Shown here in pieces: positions 1,771 to 2,607 of a stretch of DNA of 64,000 nucleotides (positions within the stretch are counted from its first letter, which is position 1; every line of letters starts with the position of its first letter). Position numbers and translations under genes: made by a program. This stretch comes from Pristiophorus japonicus (lineage: Eukaryota). The notes under the pieces were generated by a model, which made no database searches, had not been told where the DNA came from, and saw only the letters and a list, made by a program, of their open reading frames with translations. The DNA lies in contig NC_091999.1 in NCBI RefSeq assembly GCF_044704955.1, forward strand, positions 10,912,001 through 10,976,000, written 5' to 3'.

Positions 1771-2082
1771 TGAAGCAAACGTTTTGCATCGTTAAACTAA
1801 AAAAATGAAGAAGAGATATCAAATAATTCTGAATAAAGACTGGAGACAAAGGGTCAGACGGGACAGGCATGCACGGAAAGGGCATTGAACGAAAATGTGC
1901 TACAGATGCCGTTGCGCAGTGTATTTCTTTTATAAATGTGCTTCAAATTCACCAGCTAATATAATTACACCGGTGAACATCACCGGTTCTTGTTCAGACG
2001 TGTATCTTATTTGAGTTTTGAGAAAGTCCCAGTGAATCTCACTGTGGAGGCTGAATTGTTGCTTCTGTTTATCAGCGTGAAA

Positions 2083-2096
2083 GCGCCCTCTTGTGA
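2083..2096 (-). promoter_or_regulatory. CTCF-like motif 3' of RSS
   Basis: TCACAAGAGGGCGC, 24 nt after the nonamer. Confidence 0.6.
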
Positions 2097-2120
2097 GCAC
2101 TGACTGGAACTCCCAGTGTG

Positions 2121-2160
2121 AGTTTTTGTACGGGATCCGCTATATCTCTGCACCAGTGTG
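2121..2160 (-). other. Recombination signal sequence (24-nt spacer)
   Basis: CACACTG (2160-2154) + 24 nt + ACAAAAACT (2129-2121). Confidence 0.85.
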
Positions 2161-2607
2161 GGGCTCATGGCACAGAAATACACGGCGGTGTCTGAGATCA
2201 AGGCCTTGCTGATCGTTAACTCGGTAATCTTAGTCATTTTATGAAACACAGAAGAGAATCGGTCAGTGAAGTCGGGGTTTCGGTTTACTGCCGTTCCAAT
2301 AAGGTAAAACACGTACTGAGGGTTCTGCCCGTGGTGCTGCCTGTACCAGAACACATAAGGGCTAGGATCGCTGGTTGTCAAGGTGCAGTTTAGTGTCACA
2401 TTCCTTTCCTCTTCAACCATCATTTCGAGAACCGACTGTTCCACTGTGTCTTGTCGGCTCCATTCTGAAATAAAATAATAGTAATTGTCATCATCGCATT
2501 ATCATTTTATCAATAATAACATCAGGGGCAGAATTATTATTGTTGCAAAGGAAATACTTGCTGAGAAGTGATATAATGATGAGGAGTGGTGCGAGACGGT
2601 CCCACAT
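2161..2607 (-). CDS. TCR alpha/delta V segment, family A, open frame (leader 2607-2562, V exon 2464-2161)
   Basis: MWDRLAPLLIIISLL/KWSRQDTVEQ..TLNC..VFWYRQ..DTAVYFCAMSP; C23, W41 and C104 present; intron donor is GCAAGT; RSS follows. Confidence 0.9.

Follow-up and report, generated by a model that had tools for sequence, protein, structure and literature searches.

A 3′ flank with a recombination signal and a predicted CTCF site is shared by two divergent V gene families of a shark locus, probably through one ancient crossover

Two V gene families of a shark locus, A and B, have dissimilar promoters, leaders and introns and distant V exons, yet they share the non-coding DNA behind those exons, a module made up of the recombination signal (RSS), a CTCF-like element and a tail. 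This sharing is real, family-wide and ancient. The explanation we favour, with moderate confidence, is that the shared flank stems from one ancient unequal crossover at the FR3 end and RSS, on top of an RSS and a CTCF-like element that are themselves constrained. The crossover would have taken place before the split from Heterodontus.

The window, the whole 64,000-nucleotide stretch of Pristiophorus japonicus DNA that was analysed, is by its sequence an elasmobranch TCR alpha/delta V cluster, an assignment made because of PDB matches, relatives in sharks and rays, and a NAR-TCR-type cassette in the window. Its 64 kb contain about 20 V genes plus relics, with 23-type RSSs and in both orientations. 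The best single-domain PDB matches of the A1 V domain are TCR alpha chains. Among 50%-cluster representatives it lies nearest to proteins from Heterodontus (73% and 65%), Chiloscyllium, Scyliorhinus and Mobula, one protein among these shark and ray relatives carrying the name TCR alpha-like. A1, B1 and B2 are intact, each with a leader exon, an intron and a V exon with the conserved Cys, Trp and Cys. The elements of A1 and the other module-bearing genes lie as follows.

2562..2607, minus strand: leader exon of A1, 46 nt, read from sequence, with a GC-AG intron next to it.
2161..2464, minus strand: V exon 2 of A1, family A, TCR alpha/delta type, an open frame with Cys, Trp, Cys.
2161..2205, minus strand: zone in which A1 switches from A-like to B-like, with the AVYFC motif and the maxchi point at 2187/2186.
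2121..2160, minus strand: RSS of A1, CACACTG + 24 + ACAAAAACT, with the alternative register CACTGGT + 22.
2083..2096, minus strand: predicted CTCF site of A1, a CTCF-like 14-mer 24 nt 3′ of the nonamer that agrees with the published consensus at 12 of 14 positions.
1977..2082, minus strand: tail of A1, common to B1 and B2 (79-81% over the first 62 nt) and also to a Heterodontus A gene.
1864..1967, minus strand: outer flank of A1, homologous to the B-family flank at 60-65%, 39% GC.
4472..4909, plus strand: A2, a family A V gene with a decayed heptamer, a CTCF-like site at 4835-4848 and a shortened tail.
22857..23296, minus strand: B3, a family B pseudogene with its heptamer deleted and a CTCF-like site at 22947-22934.
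31481..31959, minus strand: B1, an intact family B V gene with RSS 31663-31624, CTCF-like site 31599-31586 and tail.
51829..52304, plus strand: B2, an intact family B V gene with RSS 52125-52164, CTCF-like site 52189-52202 and tail.

Several other features of the locus are recorded here. The donor of the A1 leader intron is GC (2561-2560), and its equivalent in A2 is GT. The cassette at 16371-15258 on the minus strand, which we take to be of NAR-TCR type, has a V-D-J arrangement: a V that lacks the second Cys and has a 22-spacer RSS at 16091, a D with a 12-spacer RSS at 15700, and a J after a 23-spacer RSS at 15321. This V clusters with basking shark and chimaera proteins, and no supporting delta V turned up immediately downstream of the cassette in the window. 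A segmental duplication (39.0-47.2 kb and 55.7-63.3 kb, offset 16.7 kb, identity 85-93%) carries E, D, C, truncated A and F genes. Remnants of A-family promoters lie on the opposite strand directly 3′ of the D-family RSS (41139-41236 and 57811-57895), with more at 5198-5441 and 29700-29862. Truncated A genes, cut after FR2, and B relics occur at 45845-45718, 62190-62053, 47821-47410 and 63599-63390; these are without the module because their 3′ ends have been lost.

A sequence-only reading of this DNA had proposed that non-coding positions 1985-2160 resemble 31490-31663 and, reversed, 52125-52300. This proved correct, with 139 of 174 positions identical to the first (79.9%) and 137 of 175 identical to the reverse complement of the second (78.3%), and with blastn the likeness reaches over 1977-2197 (E values of 6e-48 and 1e-44). 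Of the two example sequences it quoted, CTCACTGTGGAGGCT occurs in all three copies, while exact GTTCTTGTTCAGA stands only at 1986 and 31490 and is missing from the 52-kb copy. Across the 145 non-coding bases 2165-2021, A1 is 82% identical to B1 and 80% to B2, and masking of the heptamer, nonamer and CTCF core leaves a non-coding A1-B identity of 77-79%. The part beyond the nonamer alone scores 119 and 118 to B1 and B2, where the maximum in 200 dinucleotide shuffles is 25, and the sequence between the RSS and the CTCF site is 84-89% alike between module copies. None of the seven further V flanks compared with it (C, D, F and NAR-type) shows any likeness to the module.

The module had been taken to span about 200 bp, a bound that fails, as homology to the B flank persists through A1 1967-1864. 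Here, a B-flank profile built strictly beyond the module matches A1 1967-1864 at 6.2 bits, a score that none of 200 local shuffles reaches, and the global pairwise score of the same stretch against the B flank is reached by none of 300 shuffles (null identity 55%). Local pairwise alignments did not pick up this outer flank (z 1-2); it was detected only by the three-gene profile and by global alignment. The same three-gene profile also matches the flank of F47 (E 1e-7). In Heterodontus, the read-through of an A gene beyond the module has z values of 6.6 to B3 and 4.6 to A1, but only 1.1 and 2.0 to B1 and B2. The homology of the A and B flanks fades toward about 1864, some 300 bases 3′ of the exon, and a sharp 3′ edge is absent.

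On the other side of the module the two families part company, as had been claimed. Between A1 and B, exon 2 shares 48% of its nucleotides and 34-38% of its amino acids, and the promoter, leader and intron of A and B align at shuffle level in pairwise comparison, with no profile match at E<=10 in either direction. Within families, upstream DNA aligns at 80-84%. The maxchi break falls at 2187/2186 (p=0.0005, 2000 permutations), and it can be placed only within 2205-2161 because the AVYFC motif is common to all V families. The FR3 end had been counted as part of the module, but its likeness is generic: the last 21 coding bases of A1 agree with B at 19-21 of 21 positions, versus 16-17 of 21 for families that lack the module. 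Uniform divergence along exon and flank, with congruent trees, had been set down as the pattern that speaks against a swap. Divergence is in fact non-uniform by the maxchi test, while the module tree is compatible with a grouping of A1 with A2 (p-AU 0.29). The conflict between exon and module is one of branch length and not of topology.

The module follows its families and not a single gene. In the window, all five strong nhmmer matches stand behind V exons and the next best has E 0.31; apart from A1, B1 and B2, the strong matches are those behind A2 (plus strand, to about 4909) and B3 (minus strand, to about 22857). It is not the cassette of one gene, as A2, B3, other A paralogs and a Heterodontus A gene carry it. 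In at least four distinct X1 contigs (records 1-4), among the 18 of 1012 pieces shown, an A-type exon runs into the module (80-86%); the X1 sample may be the window's own. These contigs also bear on the idea that the assembly is a chimera between paralogous V genes, which we regard as hardly credible. None of the contigs among the matches listed (the same 18 of 1012 pieces) spans the whole stretch, which is what a chimera would allow. However, the A1 module differs by about 20% from every B copy, the identical exon-module junction recurs in independent paralogous contigs and in a gene of another species, and record 7 of X3 matches 1850-2151 with zero differences.

Flanks in other species were viewed at the protein level, in gene predictions that continue past the end of the V. 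The top four of 272 such read-through tails are P0004 of Heterodontus (z 20.6), P0020 (5.3), skate P0012 (5.3) and Chiloscyllium P0016 (4.2). P0004 tracks A1 over 60 codons at 60% amino acid identity, versus 52% for B1 and 46% for B2; since it reads through the module, the link between family A exon and flank predates the Heterodontus split. The negatives P0002, P0006 and P0034 were set aside as uninformative because the gene predictions may splice there, and P0019 was too short. B-side relatives were reached only via an A1-based protein search, so the B side is under-sampled. No match came from word-indexed protein searches, whether the query was A1 or B2 with its read-through; metagenome contigs yielded no hit to the module motif, and the stretch 1700-2300 has no Rfam match at E<=1.

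Could A1 alone have taken a bounded 200-bp cassette from B in a recent event? The A1 module is nearer to B1 and B2 (80-82%) than to A2 (72%), as such a capture would produce. But the module also stands behind A2, other A paralogs and A genes of Heterodontus and Chiloscyllium, the A2 branch is long in the exon as well as in the module, a sharp 3′ edge is absent, and no copy occurs apart from a V exon in the window. We consider this reading very improbable, and the cross-species read-throughs have already largely refuted it. The suggestion that a V may have acquired its rearrangement control as a portable cassette is not supported: the module is family-wide, predates the Heterodontus split, has no sharp 3′ edge and, in the window, is present only behind V exons.

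Likelihood tests under a K80 model on the five window DNA sequences (A1, A2 and B1-B3, two of them with dead RSSs) reject one rate scale for the module against a scale plus a free A|B stem (2dL=69.8, p=6.5e-17). Within the families, all six module branches evolve at 1.2 times the rate of the exon; the stem between A and B measures 0.72 in the exon and 0.00 in the module, and freeing all module branches gains nothing (p=0.80). The same stem test gives p=1e-12 for the RSS-CTCF part alone and p=5e-8 for the tail alone, and the upper bound on the module A|B stem is about 0.05, or about 0.08 with the heptamer, nonamer and CTCF region masked. For intact genes only, the ratio of module to exon distance is 1.3 (0.72-2.29) for B1-B2 and 0.22 (0.14-0.34) for A1-B1. 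For the five window genes, constraint acting uniformly and by itself is rejected, because it should shorten all branches, yet only the A|B stem vanishes. Saturation does not account for this stem: three-state sites make up 2 of the 38 variable sites in the module, where uniform rates predict 2.5 and a frozen-plus-saturated model would give 39% (P=2e-6), and the gamma shape of the module is 998. A point on the other side is that a transition excess is absent from the module (15:11 and 13:16; 10:13 for B1-B2).

The exons, in turn, separated long ago. Two chimaera V domains fall inside the A clade of the exon tree (99/96), and a clade of the window A and B genes is rejected (p-AU 1e-4), which together make the A/B exon split old. 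Chimaeras and elasmobranchs split about 400 million years ago. The vanished stem, the unsaturated sites and the old exon split call for an ancestor of the flank far younger than that of the exon, and hence for an exchange. The module tree is a star in which A1+A2 is not rejected, and quartet sites 3′ of the break give mixed counts (7:2:0, 1:5:0 and 5:4:1), so no donor can be named.

The strongest competitor to an exchange is constraint only, where A and B would be sister families that inherited a conserved non-coding flank from their common ancestor while exon and promoter diverged. The A and B sides are sister clades in one exon tree (88/82), as this requires, and are not resolved in another. 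The first half of the module is also carried by a skate B-side gene and, weakly, by a chimaera A-side gene, and the spacing from nonamer to CTCF-like 14-mer is identical, at 24 nt, in all five copies. Over the first 72 bases, best-case identity to A1 among 257 tails is nearly flat despite very different exon distances: 66/72 for Heterodontus (exon 73% aa), 63/72 for P0020 (57%), 60/72 for Chiloscyllium (58%) and 59/72 for the skate B-side gene (45%), with B1 itself at 62/72; the RSS likeness of the chimaera A-side gene is weaker (52/72), and two Chiloscyllium B-side genes reach 51 and 42. However, the one-scale model is rejected, saturation is lacking, and homology extends into AT-rich DNA without a recognised motif. 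Within B, moreover, the module is kept no better than neutral flank (B1/B2 identity 84% in the module, 82% in the outer flank and 84% in the 5′ region). The intervening sequence between RSS and CTCF site, so alike here, is unconserved in mouse according to the available part of PMC6746451. On balance, constraint as the whole explanation is unlikely.

Constraint nevertheless retains a role. Because of the near-flat cross-species identity over 72 bases and the skate B-side carrier, the RSS-to-CTCF half of the module is old, present on both sides of the V clan and probably constrained. The sequence-only reading had offered exchange near FR3 and stronger constraint as alternatives; exchange is favoured for the whole flank, and constraint, unlikely as the sole cause, probably adds to it in the RSS-to-CTCF half. 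We infer that this half is an older constrained element of the V clan that supplied the homology for the exchange.

Exchange may also have been recurrent, with the stretch of FR3 end, RSS and CTCF site seeding gene conversion again and again among A, B and related families so that their flanks evolved in concert. The star shape of the module tree fits this, as does the patchiness of the B side (skate P0012 59/72, P0025 51/72, P0125 42/72), and the 3′ end of homology varies by gene, at about 2021 in A2 and about 1864 in A1. Yet a single event is statistically enough, given that the all-free model gains nothing, and A modules are closer together across species (Heterodontus 66 versus 59-60 of 72). 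Repeated conversion is quite improbable, somewhat below constraint only in our estimation, and we return to the single crossover.

The RSSs of the module agree with a spacer of 23(+/-1), as CACACTG+24 or CACTGNN+22 with a nonamer. Both heptamer registers are possible in all three intact module genes (2160-2121, 31663-31624 and 52125-52164), and a one-base shift at the RSS gives the best fit for the read-throughs from skate, chimaera and Chiloscyllium. The RSSs of A2 and B3 are dead. One contig of run X5, from a sample other than X1 and X3, matches A1 2317-2161 exactly and then continues with 12 non-germline letters from the start of the heptamer, a weak hint that A1 rearranges; the first three of these letters mirror the A1 coding end, as would fit a RAG cut at CACACTG. 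A perfect CACAGTG without a nonamer lies in the tail at 2046-2040 and at the equivalent positions of B1 and B2; all three intact genes retain it, and A2 and B3 no longer have it.

The predicted CTCF site agrees with the published consensus at 13 of 14 positions in A2, B1, B2 and B3. The window holds eight matches to the CTCF consensus against 0.67 expected, four of the eight being homologous and hence non-independent module copies. In the register of the mouse motif, the distance from nonamer to site is 22 nt, outside the 17-19 nt of mouse. CTCF-like sites also occur away from RSSs, at 46525, 62838, 34028, 50952, 59017 and 24233; two such sites are upstream of F-family V genes, and one opens a 70-nt tandem array (24238-24867).

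In the mechanism we propose, the constrained RSS and CTCF-like element, together with the AVYFC codons, would offer about 100 bases of homology between families that otherwise cannot be aligned. One unequal crossover in this stretch would join the promoter and exon of one family to the flank of the other, and the founder of one family would thereby gain the whole 3′ flank of the other before the families expanded. The transferred flank, comprising the RSS, the predicted CTCF site and about 200 more bases, would since have eroded from its far end. By analogy with mouse proximal VH genes, CTCF and cohesin on the predicted site would open the adjacent RSS to RAG and raise its use, and the CTCF-like element would be lost from the coding joint upon rearrangement.

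The finding is a variant on two known things, CTCF sites beside the RSS and crossover within V clusters. By comparison with mouse antibody genes, it suggests that sharks already set a CTCF site beside the RSS. More tentatively, and on the same analogy, cartilaginous fishes may license TCR alpha/delta V genes through an RSS-proximal CTCF element, with this module moved by an FR3-end crossover between families split more than 400 million years ago. In mouse Igh, V usage is known to be set by CTCF sites beside the RSS, whose presence follows the V exon tree; a predicted site in only some shark families (A and B versus C, D and F) offers a test of whether the mechanism is ancestral to jawed vertebrates. 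With a flank far younger than the exon split, V family trees are a poor guide to the regulatory flank. If the proposal is true, V specificity and the control of V rearrangement are separately heritable, and RSS-side CTCF anchoring either dates to the base of jawed vertebrates or arose twice.

No report of a shark RSS-side CTCF site was found in the literature searched; subscription papers and supplements, which lie outside that search, may describe these RSSs. A description of the module is absent from the available parts of PMC7696796, PMC12227049, PMC5931798 and bioRxiv 10.64898/2026.09.05.749481. The nurse shark TCR alpha/delta V segments covered by the available part of PMC5931798 are likewise elasmobranch germline V genes, and the phrase "recombination signal" is absent from its main text.

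Unequal crossover and gene conversion are typical of V multigene families under birth-and-death evolution. As in such exchange generally, the shark gene is a mosaic with its break in the most conserved stretch. Unlike the usual case, the families joined share only 34-38% protein identity, and what would have moved is non-coding recombination control, not CDR sequence, fixed family-wide. Among shark genes, conversion of UrIg2 domains is described in the available part of PMC12227049.

The closest parallel is found in the proximal VH genes of mouse and human, in which, as in the shark, a CTCF consensus match stands directly 3′ of the V RSS at a fixed distance, and only some of the V families have the site. 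In the available part of PMC6746451, the RSS-associated sites are placed 17-19 bp 3′ of the nonamer in mouse and at 19 or 48 in human, and site presence in mouse tracks the VH tree; the available part of PMC4914699 adds that the state of CTCF/RAD21 is a mark of VH clans 2/3 and of active recombination. The shark locus differs in being TCR alpha/delta and not mammalian IgH, in having a site predicted from its consensus match, and in carrying V genes, and hence sites, in both orientations. Its copies are also alike in the intervening sequence and in a tail of about 200 nt, which is not so in mouse VH as far as the available text goes (PMC6746451), and its flank dates from long after the exon split, whereas in mammalian VH the site follows the V exon tree. 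Mouse Tcra/Tcrd, in contrast, has the locus type and CTCF sites in both orientations in common with the shark, but in the available part of PMC5859386 its V-region sites lie mostly upstream of V promoters, away from the RSS.
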